Shown here: positions 8,364 through 36,091 of the stretch, piece after piece | Layout of the letters: each line of letters starts with the position of its first letter | Position numbering within the stretch: position 1 is the first letter of the stretch | Source of the DNA: a virus | Lineage: Duplodnaviria; Caudoviricetes | Virus record (IMG/VR): IMGVR_UViG_3300020044_005777 | Coordinates: 1-38,560 of that record | Strand: one strand, 5' to 3' | Length of the DNA stretch: 38,560 nt | The notes under the pieces: model-generated | What the model saw: only the letters and a program-made list of their open reading frames with translations | Database searches by the model: none | Told to the model about the DNA's origin: nothing | Translations under genes and position numbers: made by a program

Positions 8364-8431
8364 TTAGGTAATAGTTTTAATGGCGCAATGGTTCTGTTAG
8401 CTTTAGTTTATTTAAAATTTTACCATTAAAT

Positions 8432-8638
8432 ATGCAACATTCAGTAAAAAATATCGGTGATAATTACGAGAAACTTTCAATTATGCGAAAGGACAAATAT
8501 CAATTCAATGCAAATGATTTCTTTCAGTTTGCAAAAGATAATATAAAGAATTATAGCATAATTGAAAGTGGAGATGATTTACTTGTTAGCACTTGGTATA
8601 TCGATTCTTTGATTGAGGATTACCAATCAACAATTTAA
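8432..8638 (+). CDS. Hypothetical protein in 300-bp repeat-flanked segment
   Basis: 68-aa ORF between the direct repeats. Confidence 0.65.
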   Translation: MQHSVKNIGDNYEKLSIMRKDKYQFNANDFFQFAKDNIKNYSIIESGDDLLVSTWYIDSLIEDYQSTI

Positions 8639-8661
8639 AGAAATTGTTAAGGAAGGGAAGT
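8629..8661 (+). repeat. Direct repeat copy 2
   Basis: See 8329-8361. Confidence 0.9.
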
Positions 8662-8682
8662 AAAATTTAATTTGAAAACAAA

Positions 8683-8940
8683 ATGACAGCAACACAATTT
8701 ATTAAAGAAAACTACACATTAACAAATGGTGGAGAAGATTATATATGTAACCACTCAGGACAATTAGTTGGTGCTGAAGATATAGCTGAAGAATATCACA
8801 AGTATAAGTTAAAATTATTGGGTATAGCCGATGTTAGCTGCCAAAGGGAACAGTTACTTGCCTTTGCAGGATGGCTATATGGAAACTTAGACAAAGAAGT
8901 TGAACGAATGATTGTTGATGACTACTTAAAGGTCAAGTAA
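8683..8940 (+). CDS. Hypothetical protein reading through a cassette-like core site
   Basis: 85-aa ORF; IADVS encoded by ATAGCCGAT-GTTAGC. Confidence 0.75.
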   Translation: MTATQFIKENYTLTNGGEDYICNHSGQLVGAEDIAEEYHKYKLKLLGIADVSCQREQLLAFAGWLYGNLDKEVERMIVDDYLKVK

Positions 8941-8951
8941 TTGCTGCCAAC
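8833..8951 (+). mobile_element. Integron-cassette-like unit
   Basis: Starts GTTAGCTGC, ends GCTGCCAAC; CAGTTACTTGCCTTT (8851-8865) pairs with AAAGGTCAAGTAATTG (8928-8943). Confidence 0.55.
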
Positions 8952-9010
8952 TAATTTATATGCGAAACATTACACACAGTAATACATTAACCAATAAAAA
9001 AAGTAAAGAT

Positions 9011-9253
9011 ATGGAACTAAGAAAAGTAAAGTTCAAAAAGTGGATTCCGTCAGAGAGAAAGCTAATGGATGGCAGATATTATACAGTAAGCGATACAAAT
9101 TGCTATGAGGAAGAATACTCGCAAGACGGCTTCTTTCATCAGTGGATTACTCGTGAAGAGGGAGATGGAACAAATATCTTTGCTATTATTGAATTGCCCG
9201 ATGGAACTATTAAAATCGTTCAACCACACGTCATAAAATTTATTAACCAATAA
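9011..9253 (+). CDS. Hypothetical protein
   Basis: MELRKVKF...GFFHQW...AIIELPDGTI; ATG 9011 has an A-rich leader. Confidence 0.75.
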   Translation: MELRKVKFKKWIPSERKLMDGRYYTVSDTNCYEEEYSQDGFFHQWITREEGDGTNIFAIIELPDGTIKIVQPHVIKFINQ

Positions 9254-9277
9254 AACTAACCAGTAACAACAAGTAAG

Positions 9278-9598
9278 ATGAAATTAATAAACATTGCAGA
9301 CCTGAAAAATCCAGAAACAGGCAAAACATATCGGGAAGAAAACAACGCAAAAAGACACAACATTCCATTAGGAACATTGGTTGAAGTTGATTTTGATGAT
9401 AGCTATTTAGAAAGCAAAAAGAAAGGATTAAGGCTTTTTGTAGTTGAACACGACAGGGATTGTGATGGTACTCCCTTATATTCTTTGTCATTTAATAAAA
9501 ATTGGAAACCCGATATGTTTGGCGAACAATTCAAAACATTTGCAAGATGGGCGATAGATACTGGTTATTTAGAAGACAGCTTGAAAGTAGTATCGTAG
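9278..9598 (+). CDS. Hypothetical protein
   Basis: 106-aa ORF, HNIPLGTLVEV...HDRDCDGTPLYSL. Confidence 0.8.
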   Translation: MKLINIADLKNPETGKTYREENNAKRHNIPLGTLVEVDFDDSYLESKKKGLRLFVVEHDRDCDGTPLYSLSFNKNWKPDMFGEQFKTFARWAIDTGYLEDSLKVVS

Positions 9599-9621
9599 AA
9601 ATACACATAACAAACTAACCC

Positions 9622-9867
9622 ATGACCGAAGTAAAAACAATAGGCGACTACATTAACGCTCTCCCTGATGAGATTAGGGAGGTAGTTAGGGTAAAATTTC
9701 ATCAAGAAAATGTGTTTTCAGAATCAGACAAATATCTGAATGCAGGCATACATCCGCTATGGTGGATTGTAGACTTTACTGATAGTGAATGGGAAAATGA
9801 ATGGGAAAACCTTGCAGATACATACACCCTAAAACAGAAAGAAGGTAAATACTACACTAATTGGTAA
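9622..9867 (+). CDS. Hypothetical protein
   Basis: 81-aa ORF. Confidence 0.7.
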   Translation: MTEVKTIGDYINALPDEIREVVRVKFHQENVFSESDKYLNAGIHPLWWIVDFTDSEWENEWENLADTYTLKQKEGKYYTNW

Positions 9868-9870
9868 ATT

Positions 9871-10020
9871 ATGGGAAAACGAGCAGACGGACGAAAAGTA
9901 TATAACTTTGCTTTTTTTATTAAAGACATTCAGGATTTTGATGAAAAACGTAAAAAGAAGTACCCTAATAAAAGCAGGACACAGGTTATTGAATTATTGA
10001 TAAAAAAGTTTAAGACCTAA
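9871..10020 (+). CDS. Small ribbon-helix-helix-like DNA-binding protein (49 aa, not in ORF track)
   Basis: MGKRADGRKVYNFAFFIKDIQDFDEKRKKKYPNKSRTQVIELLIKKFKT: strand, helix, SRT-capped helix as in Arc/CopG. Confidence 0.55.
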   Translation: MGKRADGRKVYNFAFFIKDIQDFDEKRKKKYPNKSRTQVIELLIKKFKT

Positions 10021-10405
10021 TCCACCTAACTAAATAACCTACTAATAAAGCTATTAAGATATAAAGTGCTATGTGCCATTTACTAATCGTTGGTTCGAGA
10101 ATAGTGGTGGTGCATGGTACTTTTATTAAATGGTCAACCTTAATAGTGTCACATTTACCTTCAATAAATACTTTATCCCCAGCTAACTTCACATATTTGA
10201 TTTTAAGCCTATCTTTGGTTAAATATACAGTATCACCTTGTATTGGTTTAAATAGTGTGTCTAATTGAACGGAATTGATTAATAGGGTATCATGTACTAA
10301 TAGGGTATCAACTATCTTACGAGTGCCACATTTAGCCTCTGCACGTTTAAGATAGTAATTGCAGGAGCAAGACGAAAGCAATATTAATAAAGCAATAAAC
10401 CTCAT
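10010..10405 (-). CDS. Unimolecular-spanin-like lipoprotein
   Basis: Lipobox LSSC, beta-rich middle, C-terminal TM helix, in lysis cassette. Confidence 0.7.
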   Translation of the reverse strand: MRFIALLILLSSCSCNYYLKRAEAKCGTRKIVDTLLVHDTLLINSVQLDTLFKPIQGDTVYLTKDRLKIKYVKLAGDKVFIEGKCDTIKVDHLIKVPCTTTILEPTISKWHIALYILIALLVGYLVRWIRS

Positions 10406-10650
10406 TACTGTTTATCCTCCGAATTACCGTTTTTAAATTTAATCACTTGTTCTGCCGTTACAATACCTAGACAAGCTAAAGCAAAGACTAACCAAGCGTA
10501 TAAAGCCTCTAATTGATATTCAGTAGGTATCTTATAAAAGGTTACTACAATAGCACTAATAACACCAGCAAAAGCCGACATTTTACGGGCTGAAAATCCA
10601 TCCTTTGAATTGTCGAATGTGCCTACTAATTTACTCCAAATTTGCTTCAT
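10405..10650 (-). CDS. Holin-like membrane protein
   Basis: 81 aa, two TM helices, charged C-terminus, next to endolysin. Confidence 0.65.
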   Translation of the reverse strand: MKQIWSKLVGTFDNSKDGFSARKMSAFAGVISAIVVTFYKIPTEYQLEALYAWLVFALACLGIVTAEQVIKFKNGNSEDKQ

Positions 10651-10780
10651 ACTTTTTTACTAATATTTCTAAACTATCCCGTTCTTTTGCTACCTTGCAA
10701 AGCTCCTCACAACATTCATGACTAAACCTATTAGAATTAACACAGGAAGTCAATAAGGCGCATATAGCGATTAATCTCAT
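10631..10780 (-). CDS. Small Cys-rich lipoprotein (49 aa, not in ORF track)
   Basis: MRLIAICALLTSC lipobox; ATGA overlap with lysozyme stop. Confidence 0.6.
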   Translation of the reverse strand: MRLIAICALLTSCVNSNRFSHECCEELCKVAKERDSLEILVKKYEANLE

Positions 10781-11235
10781 GCAGTAAAGTATAAGTCAGC
10801 CTCTGCCTTTCTCCTTCTCTCTAATCCAGCTAATTTTGTTTTCCCAGCATAGCACCACTTCATAAATTCATCCCGTATTGTTTTATCATTCGGGTTAACG
10901 TTTAATTTCTTTAATAACGTGGATTGTTTCAATGCTCCTGCACCTAAGTTATAACAGAACGAAACTAGTGCGTTAAATTGATTTTGAGTGATAGTATCAA
11001 TACAAAGCGAATCAACTGATAGTTCAAATGCTTTTACGTCATGCGCTAACATTTGTAACGCAAATTCTTTTGTGATGTGCGGGTCATTCATTGTAACCTT
11101 ATTTCCAGAAGGATAGCGAGTAGAGCCATAGCCAATGGTAGGAACGCCAGCAGGACAGATATAAGGCTTTTCACTAAACCCTTCGAATTGACAAATTAAG
11201 TCAAGACACTTTTGGTCAACCTTTGTAATTTTCAT
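10777..11235 (-). CDS. Endolysin, GH24 lysozyme
   Basis: FEG..PYICPAGVPTIGYGST, QNQFNALVSFCYNLG, GLERRRKAEADLY; start at MKITK. Confidence 0.95.
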   Translation of the reverse strand: MKITKVDQKCLDLICQFEGFSEKPYICPAGVPTIGYGSTRYPSGNKVTMNDPHITKEFALQMLAHDVKAFELSVDSLCIDTITQNQFNALVSFCYNLGAGALKQSTLLKKLNVNPNDKTIRDEFMKWCYAGKTKLAGLERRRKAEADLYFTA

Positions 11236-11558
11236 GCTTTCTTTAATAAATAATTTAATATCAATGTTACGATAGACCAAAGAACCCCGCCAACCAAGCC
11301 ATAGGCAGCGATTTTGCCTTTTGCAAATGCGTTAGCAATCTCCTGCGACTTGATGTAGTCGTCCATTTTTTTTTTTAAATCTTTGACATCCTTGTCAATA
11401 ACCTTCACTTCACCAAACAACCCAATACGACCAGTACCCTCGTCATTATTTAGAAGGAATACAAGCCTATCAACATTACGGTTAGTGTCTTTTACTGCTG
11501 TTTTTAGTTCAGATAATTCTTCCTTTAATGTTTTGATTTCTTTTGTGTCAGGAGCCAT
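11232..11558 (-). CDS. Coiled-coil protein with C-terminal TM helix (holin/XhlA-like)
   Basis: Heptad N-terminus plus one TM segment, immediately upstream of endolysin. Confidence 0.6.
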   Translation of the reverse strand: MAPDTKEIKTLKEELSELKTAVKDTNRNVDRLVFLLNNDEGTGRIGLFGEVKVIDKDVKDLKKKMDDYIKSQEIANAFAKGKIAAYGLVGGVLWSIVTLILNYLLKKA

Positions 11559-11911
11559 ATTTTTGTCTTTATTTCGGGGTAGTAGTAAAGAAGTGAACCA
11601 ACTAGTAATAGTGCTATAAACACCATGTCCGTCCAGTTAAAAATATTAATGTCAAGGATTTTATTAATAATGTCTATTGTAACAATGCCAATGGAAACCA
11701 CGCTAATAACGCTAATTTGCTTAACCTCGTAAAACTTAAAAGGTGATATGTTTGCAACAAAAAGGAATAGAGTGTAAACAGAAATTAGTATCATTCTTAA
11801 CTTCCATGCACTCATTAACCCTTCGGGAGTAGATACGTCAAACATTACATCTGATACCATGTACCCGAAAGAAAATAAGATAATGGAAGCTAAGAGTAGA
11901 TACTTCTTCAT
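11525..11911 (-). CDS. Membrane protein, about 4 TM helices
   Basis: Hydrophobicity pattern; coupled in late operon. Confidence 0.7.
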   Translation of the reverse strand: MKKYLLLASIILFSFGYMVSDVMFDVSTPEGLMSAWKLRMILISVYTLFLFVANISPFKFYEVKQISVISVVSIGIVTIDIINKILDINIFNWTDMVFIALLLVGSLLYYYPEIKTKIWLLTQKKSKH

Positions 11912-12090
11912 TACTTCAATACTGGTGGGTAAGTATGAGTAGGGTTAACCGTGTCTAGTGTGTCCGCAATAGCATCAGTCAGGCTAGTGTTTACGGCTGC
12001 AATTAATTCTTCATTAACGGTCAATCCGTTAACTGTTAGAAATTCGTCAATCTTTGCGTTGATTGCGTTCTTGATGTCTTGTGTTGTCAT
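11911..12090 (-). CDS. Small hypothetical protein (59 aa, not in ORF track)
   Basis: MTTQDIKNAINAKIDEF...; fills the gap exactly with TAATG coupling. Confidence 0.7.
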   Translation of the reverse strand: MTTQDIKNAINAKIDEFLTVNGLTVNEELIAAVNTSLTDAIADTLDTVNPTHTYPPVLK

Positions 12091-12093
12091 TGT

Positions 12094-12324
12094 TTATAGA
12101 TTAAAATTGTCAGGTAGTTTGTCATTAAATGTTTCAGTCGTTGGAACTTCACTCCAATCAATTTGCTTGAATTGGTCAGTATCTTTTAGTGCTTCGTACA
12201 TATTTTCGGCTACGATATATGTGCCATCCTTTTGTTCACGGACAAATGGTGAGAAGTTGATTTCTCCGTGTGAGAACTCACCGATATACTGTGCTTGTGC
12301 CTTTGTTATTTTGAAAAAAATCAT
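12094..12324 (-). CDS. Hypothetical protein, possible fibre accessory
   Basis: 76-aa ORF coupled to the upstream gene. Confidence 0.7.
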   Translation of the reverse strand: MIFFKITKAQAQYIGEFSHGEINFSPFVREQKDGTYIVAENMYEALKDTDQFKQIDWSEVPTTETFNDKLPDNFNL

Positions 12325-13118
12325 ACGTTAAAACCTAATGATGTTGCAAGTGTTTGTACTGCATTGTAAAAAGCCAATTGGCTTAAACTTCCTGAAGAAT
12401 ATCCCATTATTGAATAAACACGGTTATCGGGATAAACAAGTGAGCCGTTTTGGTTTGCCCCTAATCCATAAGCGTTTAAACTAGGTATATTAGTTGAATT
12501 ACTTGAATATACAGAACCAAATAAGCTCCCGTTTAAATATGCACTTTGTTGTGTTGCATTACTTCTATTATTTACAACTAGTCCTTTATCAGTTCCAGTA
12601 TATGTTATTGGAAAAGTAGCTGCATCACTATTTACATATCCATACATTTGACCACTTGCATTAGGGAAAACTAAATGTGCTGACGTTGTTGCCATATCCC
12701 ATGCCCCCATTGCCAAAGTTAATTGCGATGCGCTAGACCGTGTATAATAAAAAAAAGCAGCATCGTTTTTTTGATAATTAACCCCTTGTGTAGCTGCGTT
12801 AAATTGCAAATTCAAATATGATGTAGCTGCATTACCATTATATCCTGAATAGGATGTCCATGTAGGGCTATTAACTTCTGTTATTTGTGTAGAGGTAGGG
12901 TTTACGATAGATACCCTTGCGTGTTGCTGGCTTCCTGCTGCAAATAACCAAAATCTATCTAATTTGCTCCAATTTCCGTCAGCCTTACAAGTTACAATAA
13001 ATTGATTTACTGCATCTTTAAAAGTAGTTGAAGGTGCTGGTGATAATTGTGCAAAGTAAGCCAAAGCATCTGCATCATATCCAGCAGCACCGAATTGATA
13101 TGGATTAATAATAATCAT
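12321..13118 (-). CDS. Putative virion fibre / receptor-binding protein (beta-sandwich-like)
   Basis: IINPYQF N-terminus, S/T/N/G-rich beta pattern, follows fibre gene. Confidence 0.6.
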   Translation of the reverse strand: MIIINPYQFGAAGYDADALAYFAQLSPAPSTTFKDAVNQFIVTCKADGNWSKLDRFWLFAAGSQQHARVSIVNPTSTQITEVNSPTWTSYSGYNGNAATSYLNLQFNAATQGVNYQKNDAAFFYYTRSSASQLTLAMGAWDMATTSAHLVFPNASGQMYGYVNSDAATFPITYTGTDKGLVVNNRSNATQQSAYLNGSLFGSVYSSNSTNIPSLNAYGLGANQNGSLVYPDNRVYSIMGYSSGSLSQLAFYNAVQTLATSLGFNV

Positions 13119-13927
13119 GTACGTGCCACAATTAAAGTTACTTTCAATCCAGTAGGCGCAGTGCCTACTTGGTCAATATCAATAGTAAATTCATCGTCAT
13201 CAGCAATAGAACTAACACTAATAACCGCAGGTGTAGCAGCAGTAGTACTTGTCTTTTCTGAATTATCAATTGTTAGTTTAGTTGATAATACAGTAGTTCC
13301 GTTTTTATTAATGTCAACCGTTAATATTGACCCCGAACCTTGTGCGGTAGTTACCGAAGCCCTAACAGCACTTAAAGTACCTGCAAATGGAATCCTAAAT
13401 GTAGCCTTTGCAGTGCCAGTAGTTAAAGCAGTTGTTTCGTCCGAACAAGCAATAACAAAGTATTCTTTTTTAGCCTCTGTTAGATTGTTTGTTAATTGTG
13501 TTTGAATATTGCTTGTAACGCCATTCAAATGACTAAATTCAGCATTACTAATCTGACCGCCATCTATTTTATTAGCGTTAATCCCAGTAGTTAACATATC
13601 GTCCGTAACTACACCATCATTGATTGTCCATGTAGTCCCTGAACCTGAAACCGTTATATCGCCCTTATCCCCATCCGTAACACCGCCTGAAATAGTAATA
13701 TTACCACTTCCCAATATTGAAGTATTGTTTACGGTTTTAATATTTGTCCCACTAATTAAAGTATCTTGTTTCGCATTTAAAGCAGTTTGTGCCGCATCGG
13801 ATACAGGCAAATTAGCGGGTTTTACTTTCTTCGTAGTCGTACTAGACGTGTCAACAATAGCCAATAAATCATTGTCTTTATCAACCGTTGTTAACTCCGT
13901 TAATTGTGATATTTTTGAATCTGCCAT
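13115..13927 (-). CDS. Tail fibre-like protein
   Basis: MADSKISQLTEL, PVSDAAQTALNAKQDTLISGTNIKTVN, DGDKGDITVSGSG, LNGVTSNIQTQL fibre repeat motifs. Confidence 0.8.
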   Translation of the reverse strand: MADSKISQLTELTTVDKDNDLLAIVDTSSTTTKKVKPANLPVSDAAQTALNAKQDTLISGTNIKTVNNTSILGSGNITISGGVTDGDKGDITVSGSGTTWTINDGVVTDDMLTTGINANKIDGGQISNAEFSHLNGVTSNIQTQLTNNLTEAKKEYFVIACSDETTALTTGTAKATFRIPFAGTLSAVRASVTTAQGSGSILTVDINKNGTTVLSTKLTIDNSEKTSTTAATPAVISVSSIADDDEFTIDIDQVGTAPTGLKVTLIVART

Positions 13928-14430
13928 TATAAATAAATTTTATCTCCGTTTTCCTGCAAAATGAAATCTCCGCTTTCTAATAATAGATAAGCAATTATGT
14001 TTTCAGTCCAGCACGTTGATTTATCGTAGAATTGTGTGAATCCGAACTCCATTACAAACCCGCTTACTTCATCGTTAAATCTATCCTCAAAGTCATCTAA
14101 AGTAGCATCAGACTGTATTGTTATTAATTCATCCCTGCACCAGTCAGCAAATAAAGCATAGACATCTAAAGCCGTGCGTTGTTGGTCACTTAATACATCA
14201 ACTTTATTTTCTTCTCCCTTATTTACAAGGTCTGCAAATACTAGAGCAATTCTAGTGTTTAACTCATTGCCATTAATAGAACTATCTAATAAAGTTCCAG
14301 CCATTAAAGGATAGGTCGGGCTTTCCGACATACCTAAATTATATAGCTGGCCAAAATAGAAGCTATTTAGTCTTGGGTGACTTTCCTGAATCTCCTTTAA
14401 CTTTGCTACTATTTGATTTAATGACTTCAT
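13927..14430 (-). CDS. Putative tail terminator / neck protein
   Basis: 167-aa acidic protein after adaptor; YPL motif, FEDRFNDEVSG; C-terminal LLLESGDFILQENGD. Confidence 0.55.
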   Translation of the reverse strand: MKSLNQIVAKLKEIQESHPRLNSFYFGQLYNLGMSESPTYPLMAGTLLDSSINGNELNTRIALVFADLVNKGEENKVDVLSDQQRTALDVYALFADWCRDELITIQSDATLDDFEDRFNDEVSGFVMEFGFTQFYDKSTCWTENIIAYLLLESGDFILQENGDKIYL

Positions 14431-14481
14431 TCTGTTGCTTTAAAAACTTCTGTAATAACTCAAAGTTTTTTTTGTGAACTT

Positions 14482-15054
14482 TCATTGATATTTACCGATT
14501 CTAATGTCGTTTTCTTGCTTTTCAGTCAACCCAGCATCACCTAAATAAATTGACGTACTGTAATTAGTCCTATTCGGCTTAATATCATCACAGTCCATGT
14601 TATTAAAGTAGTTAGCGTATTTAGTCGGGTCATTACTGTTAACACGTTTAATAAACTTAGTGGTACGCTCTGCAAAAAACTCCGCATCGTTTCTCCATTT
14701 GTCCATCATGAATTTAATTTCATTCAAGTCAGCACTGGTGGAATTTTCAGCATTGTTAACCGCTATGCCTCTATTCATGTATCTATACTTGAAAATAGGG
14801 GTACATTCTAATAAAGTATAATTAACAACCACGTTCATTAAATAGTCATCTAACAATGTTTGATTGTCCGAACTTACTGAACCTGCAATAATCTCATTTT
14901 TAATCTCATTGAATAAGTCAGTACCTAGTAATGGTTTAATGTATTTTTCCTGAACCAGTCGAATAGTTGGAGTGATTAACTTAGCATCCGCATTATCATT
15001 AATAATAGAATACTGCTTTATGTAGTCGGCTGAATATGTTATAAAATCTGCCAT
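14482..15054 (-). CDS. Putative head-tail adaptor
   Basis: Directly after portal; QEKYIKPLLGTDLF, helical. Confidence 0.6.
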   Translation of the reverse strand: MADFITYSADYIKQYSIINDNADAKLITPTIRLVQEKYIKPLLGTDLFNEIKNEIIAGSVSSDNQTLLDDYLMNVVVNYTLLECTPIFKYRYMNRGIAVNNAENSTSADLNEIKFMMDKWRNDAEFFAERTTKFIKRVNSNDPTKYANYFNNMDCDDIKPNRTNYSTSIYLGDAGLTEKQENDIRIGKYQ

Positions 15055-17099
15055 TATTTCTTAACCCTTGTTTTAGTTACTGCTTTCCAAATATGACGGC
15101 AATATGGAGTAGTTTCACCAGTGTTTGGATTAGTGTACCAACCTCCCCTATAAATCCAAGCATCCTGCTTAAATTCGTTAGAAATTGAATCTACTGCATC
15201 ACGTGTCCAAACTTTACCCGAATCCGTAAGACTTAATAATCTTTCGCAAAACGGTCTAGTTTGTTGCGCTCGAGGTACATTAGGACGTGTTACATATTTG
15301 TAAACAGTATAAACCTCAACCTCAACTGGCTTAACGGTTTTATTAATTCCTTCTTCGGTTATAGTAATTCCTGATAATCCTTTAGCAATTAATCCAGCAG
15401 CTAATAACGCATTAATCGCATCGGCAACGTCTTGCTTATCAATTCCCAACTGCTTAGCGATTTTATCTTCACTAGCCGTTGGCTCGCCTTGCAATATGCT
15501 TAGTACTTTATTACGTGTTTCAGAAGCACTAACAAATGATTGGTGAGTAATAAATTCATAGCTATTAGCTGCATTTCCTTTAAACTCAACAAACTCCTCA
15601 TTTACTATTTCATCCTCATTATCATCCTCCGCCAATGCTTCAAACTTTGCCAGTATAGGGTCAATCTCCGAACTAAATCCTAGCATGATTCCAATATCTT
15701 CAACTCCTAAACCAAATCCATTTTTAAGCATCATTTCAGCCTCTTGACGGCTTATTTTACCGCTTTGATAGTTGCGCTTAATACGGTTAATACCTTGCCA
15801 TTGTCTGCCAGTTAAATTCTTCAAATGCTCGTTAACTTGCGCTTGTTGTACTGGCTGTGATTGTATAGATTCAGATTTAGGCTTTAATCCTAATTTAGAA
15901 CGGATTTCATCCTCCGTTAGATACTTAGCCACGTTAGGGTCTAAGAAGTCAACGTCAATCGGTGTAAGTTGGTCAACCTCTAAACCATCCAAGTTCACAT
16001 TTACAACACTACCTAGATATTTAATTTCAGCTAAAATCTTATTTTGTCTAGGTACTGTATAAGTATTTTGTAATTGACGAAAGCTAATATCTAAAGTTGT
16101 TCTATCTGATAATGCGCCCTCTGAACTAATACCAAACAACTGTTTATTAGTAACCTGATGCCCTGTAATAATCTTTTGTTGGTTGGTCTTAGAAATTAAC
16201 TCAAATTGTTTATCTAAGTCACTAGTAGCCAAATTAAGGTACTCCGCACCTTTAGCAGCATTGTCAGGGTCAACAAAGTTAAATATAATACGCCCAGCCT
16301 TTCTAGCACCAGTAAATTTATCGTTAAATAGTTTCTCTAATTTACGCTTCCCGTCTTCTGTTGGCTGCCCGTTAAATAAAGACAGCATCCCTTGTGCTGT
16401 AAATCCTTGCGTAGCTAGAGCGTGTTGAAATTCACTAATAGCCACATCGGTAGCTATATTAATATTAGCTTGTGCATATTCAGGTAATGGGTATGTTTCA
16501 CCATGTACCTCTGCTGCTTCATCAAATTCAGCGTAATAATAAATCTGTGTTCCAGTTCTTACATTCGTGTTAAACGCTGGATAACTTCTAAATGAAGGGT
16601 GTTTTTCGGGATAACTGTTAGGTGTTCCATCCTCCTTCGTCCAAGCATCACAATAGTAAAATGTTGTTTTATCTTTACCTTTACGAACCTTTGAAAATAA
16701 CAATGGGTAAACCTCGAATCCAGTTCCACCAGCATTCCAAATTATCTGCCAAGCAAACCCATTAAATATCTCAAATGACTTAGTAGTACGGTCATAAACA
16801 TAATTCCAATCATTGTAACGATTGGCATTATAAAGAAAGTTTGCAGCCTTAGCAACCTCAACGGTATTACCTTCATTATTTATCTTTAACCCTTTACCGT
16901 ATAGATACTTGCTTTTAGCTTTTACAATAGCACCATGCTCGGGATGGTCTTTATAAAGCGATAATACAAATGATGGATAGTTATTGTCCGCACCATATAA
17001 AATGTAATCCTTGTTCTTTTTCTCTAAAAAGATAGGTGTTACTTGTGTAGCGAATTGAACCGATACTAAATTATCTACTATCTCAACATTATTAGCCAT
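15054..17099 (-). CDS. Portal protein with C-terminal extension (HTH-like and MuF-like segments)
   Basis: YGADNNYP, HGAIVKAK..YLYGKG, YPLPEY, KFTGARKAGR, IITGHQVT..LFGI. Confidence 0.82.
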   Translation of the reverse strand: MANNVEIVDNLVSVQFATQVTPIFLEKKNKDYILYGADNNYPSFVLSLYKDHPEHGAIVKAKSKYLYGKGLKINNEGNTVEVAKAANFLYNANRYNDWNYVYDRTTKSFEIFNGFAWQIIWNAGGTGFEVYPLLFSKVRKGKDKTTFYYCDAWTKEDGTPNSYPEKHPSFRSYPAFNTNVRTGTQIYYYAEFDEAAEVHGETYPLPEYAQANINIATDVAISEFQHALATQGFTAQGMLSLFNGQPTEDGKRKLEKLFNDKFTGARKAGRIIFNFVDPDNAAKGAEYLNLATSDLDKQFELISKTNQQKIITGHQVTNKQLFGISSEGALSDRTTLDISFRQLQNTYTVPRQNKILAEIKYLGSVVNVNLDGLEVDQLTPIDVDFLDPNVAKYLTEDEIRSKLGLKPKSESIQSQPVQQAQVNEHLKNLTGRQWQGINRIKRNYQSGKISRQEAEMMLKNGFGLGVEDIGIMLGFSSEIDPILAKFEALAEDDNEDEIVNEEFVEFKGNAANSYEFITHQSFVSASETRNKVLSILQGEPTASEDKIAKQLGIDKQDVADAINALLAAGLIAKGLSGITITEEGINKTVKPVEVEVYTVYKYVTRPNVPRAQQTRPFCERLLSLTDSGKVWTRDAVDSISNEFKQDAWIYRGGWYTNPNTGETTPYCRHIWKAVTKTRVKK

Positions 17100-27405: not shown

Positions 27406-27416
27406 CCGTTAGGCTT

Positions 27417-29102: not shown

Positions 29103-29208
29103 GTTTGTCTTTTTTAGAGATTAGGTATAATAGTGATATTGCTGCTCCTGTTAATAATAAAGGTGAACCAAAGTCAAGGATTATTTTCCCAAAAATATCT
29201 GCATTCAT
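29095..29208 (-). CDS. Possible 37-aa membrane peptide
   Basis: MNADIFGKIILDFGSPLLLTGAAISLLYLISKKDKHG; overlaps terS start. Confidence 0.4.
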   Translation of the reverse strand: MNADIFGKIILDFGSPLLLTGAAISLLYLISKKDKHG

Positions 29209-29224
29209 ATTCGCTCATAGTTTT

Positions 29225-29404
29225 TTAAATATCAACTTCAACTCCTTCGATTCTGTCGTAAACTTGATAATTTTCGCATATTTTTTTTCTTGTAAGCCTC
29301 TTGCACTCTTCTAGAGTGTCATAAGTAGCTAATACGTCCCAAATACCGCCTTGTGGATAGTAAAAATCAAATCCAAAAACTAAATATCTTTTATGCTTTT
29401 CCAT
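29225..29404 (-). CDS. Small hypothetical protein (59 aa, not in ORF track)
   Basis: MEKHKRYLVFGFDFYYPQGGIWD...; TAATG coupling to upstream gene. Confidence 0.7.
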   Translation of the reverse strand: MEKHKRYLVFGFDFYYPQGGIWDVLATYDTLEECKRLTRKKICENYQVYDRIEGVEVDI

Positions 29405-30738
29405 TAGCTTAGTTTTTTAAATACTCTTATGTGAACTACATTAAACAATTCTTTGAAATGGTCATTAGGTAGTAAACTGTTTACGCCTTGTGTTGTGTCA
29501 TCGTGTCCTCTAAACATTCCATCAGGTAAATTATAATTACAAGCGCAATCGTCTAATACTAAATAACCGCCTTTTTTTACAAAGGTACTAAAATTAATAA
29601 TATCTTGTCTTACTCCATTGTAAGAATGGTCACCATCAATATATATTAGGTCGTATTCTTTTTTCCCTGCTTCTTTAATAATGTCGGGATTGGTTGATAG
29701 TCCGTGTAATATAGTTGGTTGAGGTAGGTTGAACTCATTGTGTATTCTCTTTACGTCTTCTGCGTAATTTGATTCCCAATAGTTTCCTGTTGTATCTAGT
29801 GGGGTAATCCCTGTTACATTTGCTTCGGGGTTAAGCAGTTTAAACAAAGCAAGTGTTTGACCCTTGAATACTCCTATTTCTAATATTTCATTGATTGGTT
29901 GTGAATCGAATATCAGTTTAAACATTGGATAGAAAGCCCGTTCACCGAATCCAAATATGTTTTTTTCAACCCAAAGCCTAAGTTGTAGTTGCTTTATTAG
30001 ACTACTATCGGTTAATAGTTTATTGGTAAGGTTGTCGTTAATATACTTGTGTGATTGTGGTAAGTCTTGCCATGATTGGGTTAATTCTTTTACGTTCTTT
30101 GTGCTTACAATTAAATGCTCATACGCTCCTAGTGGTGTTTGTCCATTTCCGTGAACAAATTGCGCTGAACCATCCGTGTGTGTGTTTATTAGATGGTCGT
30201 TTAATTTGAACTCTGATGGTGAGCAAAAGGCTACTGATTGGAATATATGGCAATCCGTATCTAAATAACATTTGTCCTGATTATTCAGATACAAGTCAGT
30301 CATCCATGTTTGGTCGTTTATATCCTTTTCGGTTATTGGGTTGGCTTCGTATAGTTCAATAAAGGTTTTAGAACTTCCGCAAAACTGACCAGCGTTCACA
30401 TACTTAAATGGGCTGCTTGTTTCGGGATATAACTTGGCTTTCTCTGGATGAGGGTAGCATCCTTTCTCTGCGCTTATTATTAACTTGTTTGAATGAAGCT
30501 TTATTAAATCTAAAGTCTGTTCAGGCTTACCTATTGCAAACGTATCAAAGGCATCTGTAAATACAAAGTATTCGACCTGTGGGTTACTCTTTAAATAGTT
30601 GTACGTCCATTGCTCCTTGCATTCAAGTCCTGTCCAGTTTCCAGTTAAAAACTCTAAATCCCATCCGTAATTACGTGCGGACATTATTAAACGCTCTGCG
30701 CCCTCTTTACGTGATGCTGTGGTGATTAGCTTAATCAT
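29404..30738 (-). CDS. PLOD-type GT-A glycosyltransferase fused to class I SAM methyltransferase
   Basis: FTDAFD, SAEKGCYP, YVNAGQFCG, NDQ, LDTDCHIFQ, VHGNG; then LEIGVFKGQT, IYIDGDHSY, GGYLVLDD. Confidence 0.82.
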   Translation of the reverse strand: MIKLITTASRKEGAERLIMSARNYGWDLEFLTGNWTGLECKEQWTYNYLKSNPQVEYFVFTDAFDTFAIGKPEQTLDLIKLHSNKLIISAEKGCYPHPEKAKLYPETSSPFKYVNAGQFCGSSKTFIELYEANPITEKDINDQTWMTDLYLNNQDKCYLDTDCHIFQSVAFCSPSEFKLNDHLINTHTDGSAQFVHGNGQTPLGAYEHLIVSTKNVKELTQSWQDLPQSHKYINDNLTNKLLTDSSLIKQLQLRLWVEKNIFGFGERAFYPMFKLIFDSQPINEILEIGVFKGQTLALFKLLNPEANVTGITPLDTTGNYWESNYAEDVKRIHNEFNLPQPTILHGLSTNPDIIKEAGKKEYDLIYIDGDHSYNGVRQDIINFSTFVKKGGYLVLDDCACNYNLPDGMFRGHDDTTQGVNSLLPNDHFKELFNVVHIRVFKKLS

Positions 30739-31529
30739 TGGAATGGATTGTAGTAAATTGATTTAGTCCCGTTTAAATACTGGTCAACTATTCTAATAAC
30801 ATTCTGTGTTTGTTCTCCTGAATGCCTTTCCTTCCATCCTTGATAGGGTGTTTTGCCATCGTCTATATGGTCAATCTCAATCTGTGGGAAATGAACGTTT
30901 TTAAATCCTGCTATGTGACTGCGCCAACTTGCTAACACGTCATCGTAACCGTAAAGGCTAGGTTGATATAGATACCCAATTTTATCTAATAACGCACGGT
31001 TGTAAAGTTGACAAGTACCGATGACGTGTTTAACTTTTTCAACCACCAACCACTTCTGTCCTGCTTCTTGTGGCAGCATTATTAATTCTGACTTATAATC
31101 AGGATTAGGGTTGCTTGGTTTTTCCCAGCAATCTTTTCTCTTTAATCCTATAATTCCAATATTCGGGTCACGCTCGATACATTCAACCATTAAATCCAGC
31201 CAGTTAGTAGAGTGTATTACCACATCATCATCCATTTTTAAACAATGCGAATTAGGGTAACGCTCCCAAACTTTATTGATAGCTTCGGCAGTACCTATGT
31301 TAGTGTCATTAAAAATAACATCATGCACTACTCCTAACCGCTTGAACAATCTAATAAAATCAATTGTATTGTCAGTCATTCCGTTTACCGACAACACTAG
31401 CTTATAGTCCTTATTGTCTAACAATTGTGCCATTAGACTAGCTAGGCATTTTTCTAAGCATTCGTCTTTACAATTTTCTTCGGTGCTGTAAACAGCCATC
31501 CCGATAACTACTTTAGGTGAGTTGGTCAT
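30735..31529 (-). CDS. GT2-family glycosyltransferase
   Basis: NIGTAEAIN, KMDDD DxD motif, LLDKIGYL, YGYDD. Confidence 0.88.
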   Translation of the reverse strand: MTNSPKVVIGMAVYSTEENCKDECLEKCLASLMAQLLDNKDYKLVLSVNGMTDNTIDFIRLFKRLGVVHDVIFNDTNIGTAEAINKVWERYPNSHCLKMDDDVVIHSTNWLDLMVECIERDPNIGIIGLKRKDCWEKPSNPNPDYKSELIMLPQEAGQKWLVVEKVKHVIGTCQLYNRALLDKIGYLYQPSLYGYDDVLASWRSHIAGFKNVHFPQIEIDHIDDGKTPYQGWKERHSGEQTQNVIRIVDQYLNGTKSIYYNPFQ

Positions 31530-32634
31530 ATATTTGTTTTCTCTTGGTGGTTAAATTTTGTAGCGAGTAAGGTCTAATATCCCTCGATAAATAATGTGCT
31601 TTCTCTTTAATTATTTCAGGGTTTGATAGGATATATCTTTGCCATCCTTTAAATGATTTTTCGGATAGCAAGAATGAATTTTCCTTTGTAGCCAATGGAG
31701 TATATGGGTTTACTTCTGACACCATTACTGCACACCCTTTAAACCCTGCTTCTAACATTTTTAGATTAGATTTACAATTATTAAACTCTGTGTCTAATAA
31801 AGGAGCAACCGATATATCAAACTCATTGTAAACATTTCCAAACGTATCTATATCCGTTCTCCATATCCTACGGTAACACAAGTCGGTACGCAATTCTTTT
31901 TTAAATTCGTTCATTAAGTCTAAAACGTAATCCATGTGGAATCTTTGTAATGGCTTAAAGTTTCTTGTGAGTAGCTTCTCGTAAGCCACGCTAACGGTAT
32001 GCTTACCTTCATATCCACATAACACGACTTGCCCATGATGATAAAATGCGCTCTCATTAATGCTAAATGCAACATCCGCAGCAATTGAACCGATGTCCTC
32101 CTGATGGGTTGAGCCTTGTGTAAATCCGAATCTAACACGGTCTGAATAAGTACGTTTAGGCTTCCATGTATCATCCGATGTGTCAATACCATTTTCAATA
32201 ACATACACGTTTTTATTAAGCGGCTTAATCTTATCCGCTAATATTGAAGTGGTACAAATGACAAAGTGTGATGCAGCTATTGATTTAACAATTAACGCTG
32301 GTGTGTTATTGTTTTGGTAAGATTCGTAAAGTATGTGGAACTTATCTAAGTGCCAATAATCATCTAAGTCTAATCCAAATTTAATGCCTAATTTATTAAG
32401 CCGTTCTTTGGTTTCGTCAGGTCTGTTAATTACACGACAAAATAGAATTAGATTGAATTTTTTTAATTCATCATCCGACATTTCGTGAATACTATTAGCC
32501 GTTGAATAATCATAATCGGGGTGAAGTTTATTAAGCACATGGTGAGGTTTATACATACGGTGGTATTCAACTGCACCGATAGTGTACTGTGTTTCACTTA
32601 TTAAGTGGATGTGGTGGACTAATAAAACTCTCAT
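31513..32634 (-). CDS. GT-B (GT4-like) glycosyltransferase
   Basis: DLDDYW, VICTTSILA, VYVIENGID, DISVAPL...FNNCKSNLKMLEAG. Confidence 0.85.
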   Translation of the reverse strand: MRVLLVHHIHLISETQYTIGAVEYHRMYKPHHVLNKLHPDYDYSTANSIHEMSDDELKKFNLILFCRVINRPDETKERLNKLGIKFGLDLDDYWHLDKFHILYESYQNNNTPALIVKSIAASHFVICTTSILADKIKPLNKNVYVIENGIDTSDDTWKPKRTYSDRVRFGFTQGSTHQEDIGSIAADVAFSINESAFYHHGQVVLCGYEGKHTVSVAYEKLLTRNFKPLQRFHMDYVLDLMNEFKKELRTDLCYRRIWRTDIDTFGNVYNEFDISVAPLLDTEFNNCKSNLKMLEAGFKGCAVMVSEVNPYTPLATKENSFLLSEKSFKGWQRYILSNPEIIKEKAHYLSRDIRPYSLQNLTTKRKQIYDQLT

Positions 32635-32906
32635 GATTTTGGTTTCCTTCCACGTTTTTTAATTTCTTGTTGCGGTTCTTGCTTTGGAAACGTCATAAAT
32701 ACTGGCTTTCCTAGCAAATTATAAGCATCATTGAACATATTAATAATACACGACTGGCAACCACTTAAAATGTACCTATGTCCATGACTGTTTAATATCT
32801 TTGCAATGGCTATCGCATCATTGCTTCGTGCCTGTGGGATATAAGCATCATTATGTACTAATTCAATCAATGCTCTGTACGGCTCTAAATCGGTTTGTAA
32901 ACTCAT
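32631..32906 (-). CDS. Hypothetical protein with CxxC and basic tail
   Basis: GCQSC; C-terminal KKRGRKPK. Confidence 0.7.
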   Translation of the reverse strand: MSLQTDLEPYRALIELVHNDAYIPQARSNDAIAIAKILNSHGHRYILSGCQSCIINMFNDAYNLLGKPVFMTFPKQEPQQEIKKRGRKPKS

Positions 32907-33184
32907 ATCTTATGGTATAATTTGGTTGCTAACATGGAAATTAATGAACATACACCAGCCATAAATAGATTATTAAGTATAGGATGTTCAAGGTGAGTAA
33001 TTAGGTAAAGCCAAAATGATAGGCACATTTCACAATCAAAGGGCTTTAATCGGTACGGTCTTTTAAATTCAGGCGTAACTTGTTTGTATTTACCCATTAA
33101 AAAAAGAAACTGGGAAACCATTTGAGGAATACCCGATATGTTGGCGAACCATGCGCCAAACGCTGCGATTATTAAGACTTGCAT
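32903..33184 (-). CDS. Small membrane protein with CxxC (DUF1360-like)
   Basis: KPFDCEMCLSFW between hydrophobic segments. Confidence 0.65.
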   Translation of the reverse strand: MQVLIIAAFGAWFANISGIPQMVSQFLFLMGKYKQVTPEFKRPYRLKPFDCEMCLSFWLYLITHLEHPILNNLFMAGVCSLISMLATKLYHKI

Positions 33185-33765
33185 AATTGTTTATTTAGAT
33201 GTGATTTATATTCGTTAAATGAATGTAGTACTACTCTATAAGGGATATTTGATACTTCGGCAAATTTGCGAGGATTCTTAAAGTTGAACATTGATTGATA
33301 AAAAATGTGCGCCCTAAACATTGTTGTTCTATCCATGCTAGTCTTATCCTTCTCCACTTGTTTAATAATGTCGTCTTTAGTTATATGGCTTTCTTCCATT
33401 ATTTCAAGGACAGTATGAGGGTCTAAGTAATCGGGAACGTCTATAACCTCAACATCATCAAACATATCTAAGTTATAAATATTATCCGTTGCATTGTATA
33501 ATGGTGATGTAGAGCCTTTTTCATACTTCTTACACCTACCACGCATTGACCATATATTATGTATTATGCCGTAGCAAAACACCTCTAAATATTTACCCTC
33601 ATAAGCTAAAATCAATCGGTCATCTTTAATATTCAACAGCGATAAAAAAAACTCTTGGTAAAGGTCATCCGCTAAGTCCTGCCGTACCGCAATCTTAATA
33701 CAAATAGACTTGTACTTTAATTGCTTTGAAAGTTCCTCTATTATCTGCCTTGTGTCAATATTCAC
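33172..33765 (-). CDS. Sigma-70/ECF-like transcription factor
   Basis: Region-2-like LADDLYQEFFLSLL; C-terminal HTH-like PRKFAEVSNIPYRVV. Confidence 0.7.
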   Translation of the reverse strand: MNIDTRQIIEELSKQLKYKSICIKIAVRQDLADDLYQEFFLSLLNIKDDRLILAYEGKYLEVFCYGIIHNIWSMRGRCKKYEKGSTSPLYNATDNIYNLDMFDDVEVIDVPDYLDPHTVLEIMEESHITKDDIIKQVEKDKTSMDRTTMFRAHIFYQSMFNFKNPRKFAEVSNIPYRVVLHSFNEYKSHLNKQLCKS

Positions 33766-34115
33766 AAAGATAAAGTATCAACGCTCGATTTAACGGCCCC
33801 TTGAATAGATTTTATTAAATTGCCATCCACAAGTATGGAGTAATAAATTTTACCACCATTGGGATGAACCATTGATATTGTAGCGTATTTAAACTTGGTG
33901 CTTCGGGTATAGTTAGCAGTTGTAATAGGATTAACCGTAATTATTGAATCGCTACCCCACTTTTTATTGCTTAATTCAATAGTGCAATAGTATGAAGCAT
34001 CTTTGATGGTTAGGACTTTATAATCCTTTACTGGAACTGGCTCGGGGTCAGGTGTTGGCTGTACTGTTTCCTTTTTACACGATACAAGTAAAGCGAGTAA
34101 GATTAATTTTTTCAT
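33762..34115 (-). CDS. Lipoprotein
   Basis: MKKLILLALLVSC lipobox, PTPDPEPVP linker, beta domain. Confidence 0.8.
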   Translation of the reverse strand: MKKLILLALLVSCKKETVQPTPDPEPVPVKDYKVLTIKDASYYCTIELSNKKWGSDSIITVNPITTANYTRSTKFKYATISMVHPNGGKIYYSILVDGNLIKSIQGAVKSSVDTLSL

Positions 34116-34190
34116 AGGTTTTTTACAAAGTTGCGTAATTAATTTCTAATAACCAACTAAAAAAAGTTTGATGATTCTAAAAAAGATTAT

Positions 34191-34198
34191 TAGTTTTG
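34191..34198 (+). promoter_or_regulatory. Bacteroidota-type -7 element at start of early arm
   Basis: TAGTTTTG in divergent intergenic region, upstream of the cassette array. Confidence 0.55.
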
Positions 34199-34226
34199 CG
34201 TTGTGATGGAATTAAATAACAAATAA

Positions 34227-34442
34227 ATGATGATAGAAAGCAGTCAGCCCCCATTTTGCAAAACCGATGTTAGCTTTAGTTTGTGGGAATATGGCACTTG
34301 CAATGATATACCCGCCCGAAGACACAAGATTAACAAGAATGTTCAGTTTGTTTTATGGAAAGCAGGTGAGCAAGGGCATAAAGAAGATTATTGGCACAAT
34401 TTCGATATTAGTTGGTGGGATGGCTTTATTCCCACAAATTGA
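34227..34442 (+). CDS. Hypothetical protein reading through a cassette core site
   Basis: QPPFCKTDVS spans GAT-GTTAGC; stop abuts the inverse core. Confidence 0.7.
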   Translation: MMIESSQPPFCKTDVSFSLWEYGTCNDIPARRHKINKNVQFVLWKAGEQGHKEDYWHNFDISWWDGFIPTN

Positions 34443-34568
34443 AGCTAACGTTTTGCACATTGCCAAAAGTGGGGCATTATACCACCAATTTTTAATTGAA
34501 AAACCAAATTTGATATGAGTGTAAAAGCTGATTTGAAAACGATAACACCCACTTTTGGCTATGTGCTG
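34269..34568 (+). mobile_element. Integron-cassette-like unit 1 of array
   Basis: 34269-34291 vs reverse complement of 34427-34449: 21/23 match; followed by attC-like site. Confidence 0.72.
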
Positions 34569-34574
34569 TTAGGT
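34443..34574 (+). repeat. attC-like site (132 bp)
   Basis: AGCTAAC ... GTTAGGT enclosing 18/19 inverted repeat (34455-34473 / 34548-34566) around an AT-rich loop. Confidence 0.75.
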
Positions 34575-34793
34575 GCAGTGCTTCTCATAAATTGAAAAAA
34601 AAAATGAACAAAATATTGATATGTGTATTACTGCAAATCGTTCTTTTTATTCCATTCTATTTGATTTGGAGGAATGATTGCAAAAAAATAGGTAAAGACA
34701 ATTTAGCTGTTAGTTTACAAGAACGATTTTTGTACTGGCTAATATTTTGTCCAATATGGTTGGCAGGTGTTTTGGATTAGCATTGCACCTAAC
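34568..34793 (+). mobile_element. Integron-cassette-like unit 2 of array
   Basis: GTTAGGTGCAGTGC vs GCATTGCACCTAAC: 13/14 inverted match bracketing one ORF. Confidence 0.72.
34604..34780 (+). CDS. Small two-TM membrane protein in cassette 2
   Basis: MNKILICVLLQIVLFIPFYLIW...FLYWLIFCPIWLAGVLD; stop abuts the inverse core. Confidence 0.7.
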   Translation: MNKILICVLLQIVLFIPFYLIWRNDCKKIGKDNLAVSLQERFLYWLIFCPIWLAGVLD

Positions 34794-34866
34794 TTGTAAA
34801 TATGCGAACATACACACCTTACATACTTTTAAAGAATTTTAATAAAAAACCTTAAAAAATATAGAA

Positions 34867-35082
34867 ATGGAAAATTTATCACACAAAGAAAGAGAGCAAA
34901 TCGCTTTAGAAGAATTTAGAAAACAGCCTTTACAAAATATCTGTACTGTTGCGATTATTAAAATAGCAGAAGTAGCTATAAGCACAAATGCAGAAAAAGG
35001 CACATTAGAAACGGCTGCAACTATGAACGGCAAACGTTATAAAATAAAAGCGATTGTTACTTATGAGGAAATCAATCCCTGA
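34867..35082 (+). CDS. Hypothetical protein
   Basis: 71-aa ORF with A-rich leader. Confidence 0.7.
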   Translation: MENLSHKEREQIALEEFRKQPLQNICTVAIIKIAEVAISTNAEKGTLETAATMNGKRYKIKAIVTYEEINP

Positions 35083-35169
35083 CGAAGTAATCGTAAAACA
35101 CGGTAAAGCCACAACAATACACGTCATATAACTGGAATCTATAACACTGTAATCAATTAACCAAAACAT

Positions 35170-35379
35170 ATGGAAACAAAGAAAACAAAAAGAAAGCTAG
35201 ACCTACATACGCTTCAAGTGGGGGAATCAAAAACATTTAAATCAGAAGGTAATCATTTATCACTTCAATCATCACTTTGCGTGAGTGCTAAAAATGTATC
35301 TAAAAAGGTTGAAGGGTTTAAAGTTAAGACAAATGTTAGCGAAGATAAGTCCGAAGTATCAGTAACACGGTTGGCTTAA
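35170..35379 (+). CDS. Small basic putative DNA-binding protein
   Basis: LQVGESKTF...VSVTRL; followed by terminator. Confidence 0.65.
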   Translation: METKKTKRKLDLHTLQVGESKTFKSEGNHLSLQSSLCVSAKNVSKKVEGFKVKTNVSEDKSEVSVTRLA

Positions 35380-35401
35380 TCTGCAGTAATCCAATAGTTA
35401 C

Positions 35402-35424
35402 AGCCCCTTAACTGGGGCTTTTTT
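35402..35424 (+). terminator. Intrinsic terminator
   Basis: AGCCCC-TTAACT-GGGGCT-TTTTT. Confidence 0.88.
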
Positions 35425-35449
35425 ATCCCCATTTATTAAAATTCTGCTA

Positions 35450-35546
35450 TTGATTTTCAGTAAGTTATGTAAATTTCTAAAAAAACACTTGACTTTTGAA
35501 TATCGTTACCCTATCTTTACACCATAAAAAACACGACATGAAAAAA
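35450..35546 (+). promoter_or_regulatory. Early promoter block, copy 2
   Basis: Homologous to 6645-6746; TTGACT at 35489, TATCTTTA at 35512. Confidence 0.7.
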
Positions 35547-35750
35547 CCAGTATCTCACCACGCTTTATTAGCGGTAATTTTTGCCTGTATTACAATTATA
35601 GGCATAGTAATGTTAGGACACGTACTAACAGATACATTTTTAAAACAAGCCTTTATATGGATGATTAACCACCTATTTGTATCATTCATTGTATTGTCTG
35701 TTATTTGCTTTTTAGGTAACTTTATTTTTGATATTGTTAGAAACAAGTAA
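35538..35750 (+). CDS. Small two-TM membrane protein
   Basis: ATG after AAAAACACGAC; two hydrophobic helices. Confidence 0.7.
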   Translation: MKKPVSHHALLAVIFACITIIGIVMLGHVLTDTFLKQAFIWMINHLFVSFIVLSVICFLGNFIFDIVRNK

Positions 35751-35754
35751 CACT

Positions 35755-36054
35755 ATGACCACCTGTAAATCATGCGAATACTCGCAAAGACAAATAGAGA
35801 AACTTCAAAAAGAAATTGAGAGCCTTAATAAAGAGTTAGCGTTACGACAGCCAATTATTACAGAATGGGTGGCTTGTTCGGAGAAATTGCCAACAGTAGA
35901 GCAAAATGGGCAAAAAGTTTTAATTTACAGAATAATGAATGATAGTCAAGCAAGTTTAGCGATTTCGATTCACGAAACTTCAATGGTAAAACATTGTAAT
36001 GTAAATGAAACTTGGTGGACTGAACTTCCTAAGCGCCACCCTTCTCGTAACTAA
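35755..36054 (+). CDS. Coiled coil fused to DUF551-like domain
   Basis: EWVACSEKLP...VLI...WWTELPK; junction at LALRQPII. Confidence 0.72.
   Translation: MTTCKSCEYSQRQIEKLQKEIESLNKELALRQPIITEWVACSEKLPTVEQNGQKVLIYRIMNDSQASLAISIHETSMVKHCNVNETWWTELPKRHPSRN
35857..36051 (+). mobile_element. Degenerate cassette-like unit
   Basis: ATTACAGAATGGGTGGCTT vs AAGCGCCACCCTTCTCGTAAC imperfect inverted repeat ending in AAC. Confidence 0.5.
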
Positions 36055-36091
36055 GTAACCACTACACACTTAATCTTTATCAAAAATTAAA

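Follow-up and report, generated by a model that had tools for sequence, protein, structure and literature searches.

How does a phage without a recombinase gene come to carry a dispersed family of small genes bounded like integron cassettes? The question is raised by IMGVR_UViG_3300020044_005777, a whole virus record estimated to be 100% complete, analyzed here over its full length of 38,560 nucleotides (the window). Its terminase, portal, capsid-like and lysozyme genes lie on the minus strand, and the plus strand holds a lambda-like early arm in which all five units discussed below are located. A first-pass annotation had proposed that these units are integron-like cassettes, moved by IntI tyrosine recombinases supplied in trans and shuffling protein domains. 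We find that the system is real and of the integron kind but is not an IntI integron. In our assessment it is probable that the units are integron-like cassettes of Bacteroidota and phages, inserted at two docking sites by an Xer-like recombinase from outside. The idea of cassettes in a phage lacking its own recombinase holds: the sites belong to a wider family, the units recur elsewhere, and the record has no match to Phage_integrase (PF00589), Resolvase (PF00239) or a recombinase of the type found at the related phage locus L245. A protein search of the record likewise found no recombinase stub.

The five units had been described as having GTTRRRY-like starts. All five starts are present, but only that at 34568 fits GTTRRRY strictly; those at 8396, 8833 and 34269 read GTTAGCT and that at 35857 reads ATTACAG. 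Distant units share exact words (CCGATGTTAGCT at 8828 and 34264; GTTAGCTTTAGTTT at 8396 and 34269), four units close with an AAC end complementary to their own start (8, 12, 13 and 9 of 14 nt), and three open reading frames (ORFs) read in frame through a core (IAD^VS, KTD^VS and RQPI^I; here and below a caret marks a junction or cut). Taken alone, end complementarity is a modest signal: 11 window pairs match at 10 or more of 12 positions, about 2.6 times the average of 4.2 in 30 shuffles, none of which gave more than 9, and only two of the four closed units are among those 11. A library of 252 right and 254 left hairpin arms, from loci not fetched through the window units, matched the window at 16 or more of 20 positions five times (8396, 8833, 34269, 34568 and the left arm at 34449), compared to zero to two times in each of 10 shuffles. 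The start at 35857 fell below this threshold and is confirmed instead by relatives (L019 and L020; L numbers designate related loci). A 17-nt arm pattern applied to viral contigs retrieved 11 loci, all unrelated coding matches, and was rejected. An Rfam scan of the window gave two weak matches, both below the gathering cut-off and neither on a unit.

Four of the units (8833-8951, 34269-34449, 34568-34793 and 35857-36051) are also found in other phages, where they keep their ends but have other neighbors; that at 8396 is a remnant. We call the stretch between a GTT core and its AAC end a body and the translated stretch upstream of it a head. The features are as follows.

8376 to 8402, plus strand: cassette remnant, a stranded right arm with a GTTAGCT core, lacking a left arm and a closing core; 17 of 20 positions match the arm of an intact hairpin elsewhere, and 14 nt are common with 34269.
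8432 to 8638, plus strand: 68-aa ORF behind the 8396 core, weak as a cassette; its 59% identical relatives (L345 and L346) are not core-bounded.
8683 to 8832, plus strand: head A, the first 50 codons of an 85-aa ORF (8683-8940), ending in a right arm whose left arm is lost; recurs with other bodies.
8833 to 8951, plus strand: body A, start-less, with self-complementary ends; recurs behind other heads.
8948 to 8967, minus strand: docking site 1, attI-like and of host type, core at 8951; predicted with 22.5 bits, rank 1 of about 77,080 positions.
34212 to 34268, plus strand: head B, the right half of a hairpin and the start of a 71-aa ORF (34227-34442); intact hairpins in L017 and L018 match it at 94-97% identity in loop and arm.
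34269 to 34449, plus strand: body B, start-less; a 94% identical body lies in an intact array of L016 behind another hairpin.
34444 to 34574, no strand assigned: complete attC-like hairpin identified by folding and by its relative in L163; a plus-strand crossover is predicted at its AAC (34447-34449).
34568 to 34793, plus strand: body C, with its own ORF (ATG at 34604, stop at 34780); 91% identical in L330 and L276.
34790 to 34809, minus strand: docking site 2, attI-like and of host type, core at 34793; predicted with 20.1 bits, rank 2 of about 77,080 positions.
35755 to 35838, plus strand: head D, the start of a backbone gene (MTTCK...) whose ORF ends at 36054; five other continuations were found, with DNA homology ending at 35834-35839.
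35839 to 36051, plus strand: a degenerate arm (35839-35856) and body D (35857-36051, DUF551-like), with no docking site after it; an 88-89% identical body lies between hairpins in L019 and L020.

We regard the 8396 unit as a remnant because in L345 and L346 its ORF stands outside any pair of cores. The end of the neighboring 280-aa gene is copied on both sides of this remnant as a 43-nt direct repeat (84%; 8319-8361 and 8619-8661), which looks like an insertion scar. The 280-aa gene itself (7521-8363) is a mosaic: in contigs from sequencing runs X4, X6 and X7, parts of it are absent or exchanged at several points.

The complete hairpin lies between two of the units described in the first-pass annotation, which had missed it, and is the sole complete one found in the window, the other sites being half-sites. 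Its plus strand folds at -24.4 kcal/mol (z -4.2; none of 200 shuffles as good) and its minus strand with a z of -2.4. An 86% identical hairpin in L163 has different bodies on both sides. Compared to the RYYYAAC/GTTRRRY consensus of attC sites, the cores here often read GTTAGCT and the spacers are asymmetric (5-6 and 1-2 nt).

A pattern derived from this hairpin was searched against genome contigs and viral contigs. Similar sites are abundant beyond this genome: 126 matching stretches were listed from genome contigs (about 1300 estimated), with titles among those listed mostly from Bacteroidota, and 101 stretches matched in viral contigs. At 117 distinct chromosomal sites the flanking genes were co-oriented with the site in 43 cases, reversed in 3 and mixed in 13, with one or both flanks missing in 58. 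At 81 viral sites they were reversed in 56 cases, co-oriented in none and mixed in 4, with flanks missing in 21. The window genes are likewise reversed relative to their sites, where an integron cassette gene would be co-oriented and point away from attI. The orientation of the site family and the docking sites overturn the polarity first assigned to the units: GTT becomes the inverse core, and crossover is predicted at the AAC end. In integrons the bottom strand folds and recombines about 1000 times better than the top strand, according to the available text of PMC8946536. By analogy, the window plus strand likely corresponds to the integron bottom strand and would be cut at AA^C.

Tyrosine recombinases were found beside some arrays of the same sites, but they differ from IntI. 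The four array-adjacent recombinases compared with the integron integrase model TIGR02249 all scored 158-199 bits, under its 265-bit cut-off, matching it in two stretches, and their best solved relatives are archaeal XerA proteins. The phage enzyme of L245 has about 48 residues fewer across the IntI4 insertion region (its residues 179-214 span 182-265 of 2A3V). Judged by sequence, the associated recombinases are Xer-like proteins lacking the IntI insertion, not IntI proper, which contradicts IntI as the mover. A close relative of the recombinase (E 1e-60 or better) was present in 64 of 201 sampled genomes of Bacteroidota. L245 (2052-4349) is a phage with its own 266-aa recombinase, a docking site and a reversed row, in which two successive cassettes have near-identical heads on different bodies.

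Two of the AAC ends, at 8951 and 34793, are also the minus-strand cores of the docking sites, a point missed in the first reading. At chromosomal recombinase loci the array opens with TAT-N5-A^GTT, and a profile was built from 22 of 37 Bacteroidota chromosomal loci, with the first core 60-140 nt behind the gene except for three hand-picked exceptions; the other 15, which were arranged differently or lacked a core within that range, were excluded. The scores of the window sites fall within the leave-one-out range of the profile (13.7-24.7 bits), and 10 shuffles gave no such score. The sites appear to be of host type because they rank first and second with the chromosomal profile and much lower with a profile from one phage clade. 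Just upstream of the recombinase gene of phages, the motif AAC^T-N4/5-TATA(T) is present at 36 of 43 distinct loci (46 of all 54 examined). Cassette rows in L021, L024 and L045 also close with it, as does one in L111 with a weak score. AAC is followed by T at docking sites, compared to G in 254 of 266 viral hairpins. A search with the terminal-motif pattern returned 91 stretches, mostly chance matches; four were real row ends, none beside a recombinase. The AAC end at 36051 was considered as a third docking site and rejected (rank 757 with the chromosomal profile). An attI-type docking site heading an array is predicted here by sequence alone.

Elsewhere, all four closed window bodies and three window heads are found with other partners, so that the same N-termini carry different C-termini joined at GTT, as the earlier note had suggested. 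Head A is found in 19 other proteins with 18 distinct other bodies, none of them body A, with a valine at the joint in 13 of the 19 and 12 residues invariant across 20 sequences. Its DNA homology to L340 and L342 stops at 8836-8838, and the bodies in these two loci have complementary ends of their own; homology to L343 and L344 breaks earlier, and L342 and L343 keep the left arm lost in the window. Body A is 92-93% identical behind another head inside an intact hairpin (L012 and L013) and 77% identical behind a third (L014 and L015). Among 18 other proteins with body A, 15 have one common other head and 3 have three further heads, for at least five other heads overall. The L017 and L018 hairpins that match head B run into other bodies. 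In L330 and L276, body C lies between other hairpins and homology ends at 34793. The ends of body D differ from those of its L019 and L020 relatives yet remain complementary to each other; its match to PF04448 (E 4e-4) is under the family cut-off.

Comparison of hairpins from viral contigs points to what travels. Among 233 pairs at 80% identity or more, 25 have a common GTT-side body, none has a common AAC-side body and 208 have neither, from which we conclude that the travelling unit is mostly a hairpin and its downstream body. This test replaced a body-centered one that had a single informative pair. A break exactly at the GTT junction had been proposed as a check. Where two hairpins agree in their interior but lead into different bodies (105 pairs), identity stays at 0.96-1.00 from position -22 through GTTA and drops to 0.53 one base later. 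Pairs with the same body have unrelated hairpins in 4 of 11 cases. Breaks are sharp at both cores even between hairpins with only 4-5 nt in common next to GTT.

Among 135 viral bodies, 40 take their start codon from the hairpin (24 in the valine frame, 15 in a second and 1 in a third), compared to 1 of 37 bodies in chromosomes. A single fixed reading frame across GTT was considered and rejected, with two frames in use (24 and 15, +1). The suggestion of domain shuffling stands as a pattern of reassorted protein parts; shuffling may or may not be what the system is for, and two frames are in use. The fusions may instead be by-products, the heads being only translation starts that drifted into hairpin loops and the pairs being tolerated rather than selected, an explanation compatible with our proposed mechanism. 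Such an origin would fit with 75 of the 135 bodies having their own start, with two frames among the hairpin-started bodies that place swaps between classes out of frame, with a head B of 14 codons, and with our finding no function for any head or body half (the 85-aa fusion of head A and body A gave no family or fold). It accounts less well for head A, with 50 codons and invariant residues conserved across 18 bodies, and for body A, which has no start of its own and stands in frame behind at least six heads. We give this explanation not quite an even chance and consider functional domain shuffling about even.

We propose that the plus (mRNA-like) strand of a hairpin would fold and be cut at AA^C. 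A cassette would consist of a hairpin and its downstream body, and rows would grow at the docking site at their 3' end. Genes would point towards the docking site and mRNA would enter through the hairpin; therefore, the loop could supply a start codon and up to about 50 codons, continuing across GTT into a body that lacks a start. New head-body pairs may be joined by a second exchange, at the GTT core, through recombination of the other strand or when a hairpin is first attached to a body; we infer this step less firmly than the others. Left arms may later have been lost by short-homology recombination, likely of RecT type, and the first cassette of each row would thereby be fixed in position. 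The window would then be a worn example, with two good docking sites, one hairpin predicted to be live and locked first cassettes. As a tentative extension, which we think doubtful, one recombinase might cut either core, the AAC cut moving whole cassettes and the GTT cut joining any head to any body in frame, with enzyme-less phages tapping the pool through orphan docking sites.

Several observations weigh against capture at the docking sites by an outside recombinase. No recombination event, circle or empty docking site in a close relative was observed. The hairpin pairs are not independent (66 hairpins, one seeding pattern), the 22 profile sites were hand-picked from 37 loci after the window motif had been seen, and with the phage-clade profile the docking sites reach only ranks 12 and 133. 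A head that has lost its left arm cannot form the hairpin, so such heads would need another way to change bodies, unless the swaps took place earlier. Valine is absent from the joint in 6 of 19 head A relatives. Neither of the left borders at 34212-34223 and 35834-35839 coincides with a core: homology to close relatives stops at 34223, within a stretch of 12 nt where backbone and hairpin loop overlap, and at 35838-35839, ahead of the arm. A rare base in the arm of head B (1 of 22 arms) is common to the body relative L016 and not to the head relatives, hinting at a crossover inside the arm. A contig from run X1 keeps the DNA downstream of docking site 2 behind another cassette end, but it matches that flank from 34800 only, not from the core, and its 6-nt spacer differs from that of docking site 2 and equals that of docking site 1; exchange within the common motif fits this swap better than an AA^C cut. 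Several of the left borders and this swap look like short-homology recombination.

These borders lend themselves to a reading in which the units are relics, blocks acquired from recombinase-bearing phages or hosts and now moved only by the phage's own RecT/Rad52-type short-homology recombination, a route already suggested for the PeSL cassettes of T4-type phages, with no present-day site-specific recombination. The phage does encode RecT and Rad52-like proteins, the left arm is missing in four of five rows, the breaks at 34223, 35838 and 34800 fall in short shared stretches rather than cores, and the direct repeat surrounds the 8396 remnant. Against it, both docking sites score like intact chromosomal ones, the hairpin still folds well and breaks across phages are sharp at both cores; we consider this reading rather unlikely. 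Ordinary integron cassettes moved by a host IntI with crossover at plus-strand G^TT, as first proposed, share the core trinucleotides and general layout, and IntI1 recombined five of six phage attC sites (PMC9892861). Yet in the available text of that paper the sixth, P12002L_attC1, is the only printed test of the architecture seen here and was the failure; the recombinase scores and the short L245 enzyme argue against IntI, and linkage and docking sites point to the AAC end, making this explanation very improbable. Chance inverted repeats in AT-rich DNA, to which the modest end complementarity and 32 repeated 14-mers within 3.9-36.5 kb could be credited, are refuted by relatives that break at the same ends, by recurrence of the hairpin and by arm, hairpin and docking scans that exceed shuffles.

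The wider setting of the proposed cassettes in the record is as follows.

36779 to 37675, plus strand: RecT-type single-strand annealing protein (PF03837, E 9e-45).
34167 to 34198, plus strand: promoter-like motif of Bacteroidota type (TTTG-N20-TAnnTTTG) at the place of an expected left arm; pattern scan, three window matches.

The RecT protein is a candidate agent of the short-homology joints. The motif was scanned for with what we take to be the Bacteroidota promoter consensus; together with the site family, it indicates that the host is probably a member of the Bacteroidota. The hairpin had only one match, at 71%, among 301 sampled Bacteroidota genomes, and 8300-9000 and 34200-34830 had zero matches among 50,697 GenBank phage records. 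None of the sequencing runs listed as containing window DNA is an RNA run and the window share is small in all; run contigs aligned on 7400-10000 leave the units in that stretch uncovered.

The record may join two strain variants of one circular genome. Window positions 1-265 equal 36550-36814 (97%) and 3765-3885 equal 38440-38560 (100%), with alternative modules within these same flanks: 266-3764 encodes the Rad52-like protein, a YqaJ exonuclease and ParB-like and PAPS-reductase-like proteins, and 36815-38439 encodes RecT and an exonuclease. L021 has a third gene set at this place. The ParB-like and PAPS-reductase/DUF3440 gene pair (1429-3769) is possibly DNA-modifying. Ahead of the terminases, three minus-strand genes (29404-32634) encode a PLOD-type glycosyltransferase-methyltransferase fusion, a family 2 glycosyltransferase and a 373-aa protein without assignment.

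Among known systems, integrons (IntI/attI/attC; class 1 and sedentary chromosomal) are the closest in kind. According to the available text of PMC8946536, they share a double-stranded docking site beside a tyrosine recombinase, as in the hosts here, and AAC/GTT-core hairpins with mutually complementary cassette ends and near-identical hairpins on unrelated genes. The present system differs in its Xer-like recombinase lacking the IntI insertion, an unpaired spacer of 5-6 rather than 1-2 nt, phage genes that face the docking site, start codons often inside the hairpin, and, in the window, two docking sites with no integrase gene. Clusters of attC sites lacking integron-integrases (CALINs) have already been described in virulent phages (Qi et al. 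2023, PMC9892861), so integrase-less attC clusters in phages are not new. The available passages treat phage attC sites as IntI substrates and do not describe docking sites, reversed polarity, a cognate enzyme or read-through fusions. A CALIN has at least two complete attC sites close together, whereas the window has one complete hairpin. In Polaribacter phage P12002L (L431, 29248-30848), attC1 lies between two methyltransferase genes and has the architecture and gene orientation of the window hairpin; a second such hairpin lies near 38880-38935.

Two other systems resemble parts of what we describe. In the gcuF1-blaOXA-28 fusion of a class 1 integron, an ORF across a cassette junction gives a fusion protein, but the available text of PMC3375312 describes one such case, with a downstream gene that does not depend on the upstream ORF for its start, whereas here start-less bodies depend on heads in dozens of pairings. 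PeSL cassettes of T4-type phages are short, repeated, structured elements bounding shuffled small genes in hyperplastic regions, and the available text of PMC2839356 presents them as promoter-terminator units. The window has one promoter-like motif, before one row only, and the present system has recombinase cores, docking sites, a cognate recombinase in related genomes and joints inside ORFs. The accessible portions of PMC8618304 and 10.1101/2024.07.02.601686 contain nothing on this system, and a literature search, mostly outside subscription papers, found no account of an Xer-like Bacteroidota system, a reversed phage form or head-body joints.

IntegronFinder 2 reported almost no complete integrons in Bacteroidetes, according to the available text of PMC9024848, yet 64 of 201 sampled genomes carry a close relative of the recombinase, and the sites are frequent in phages of the phylum. 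If our model holds, an enzyme without the IntI signature has kept a large gene-capture system, common to hosts and phages, from being noticed. How hairpins become attached to new genes, and how small phage proteins of unknown function are assembled from parts, could be tested directly and cheaply at the sharp second-core joint. If true, a cut on the GTT side would be a concrete route for attaching hairpins to new genes, an unsolved step of cassette genesis, and phages of Bacteroidota would be using a mirror-image integron of non-IntI type to build proteins combinatorially.

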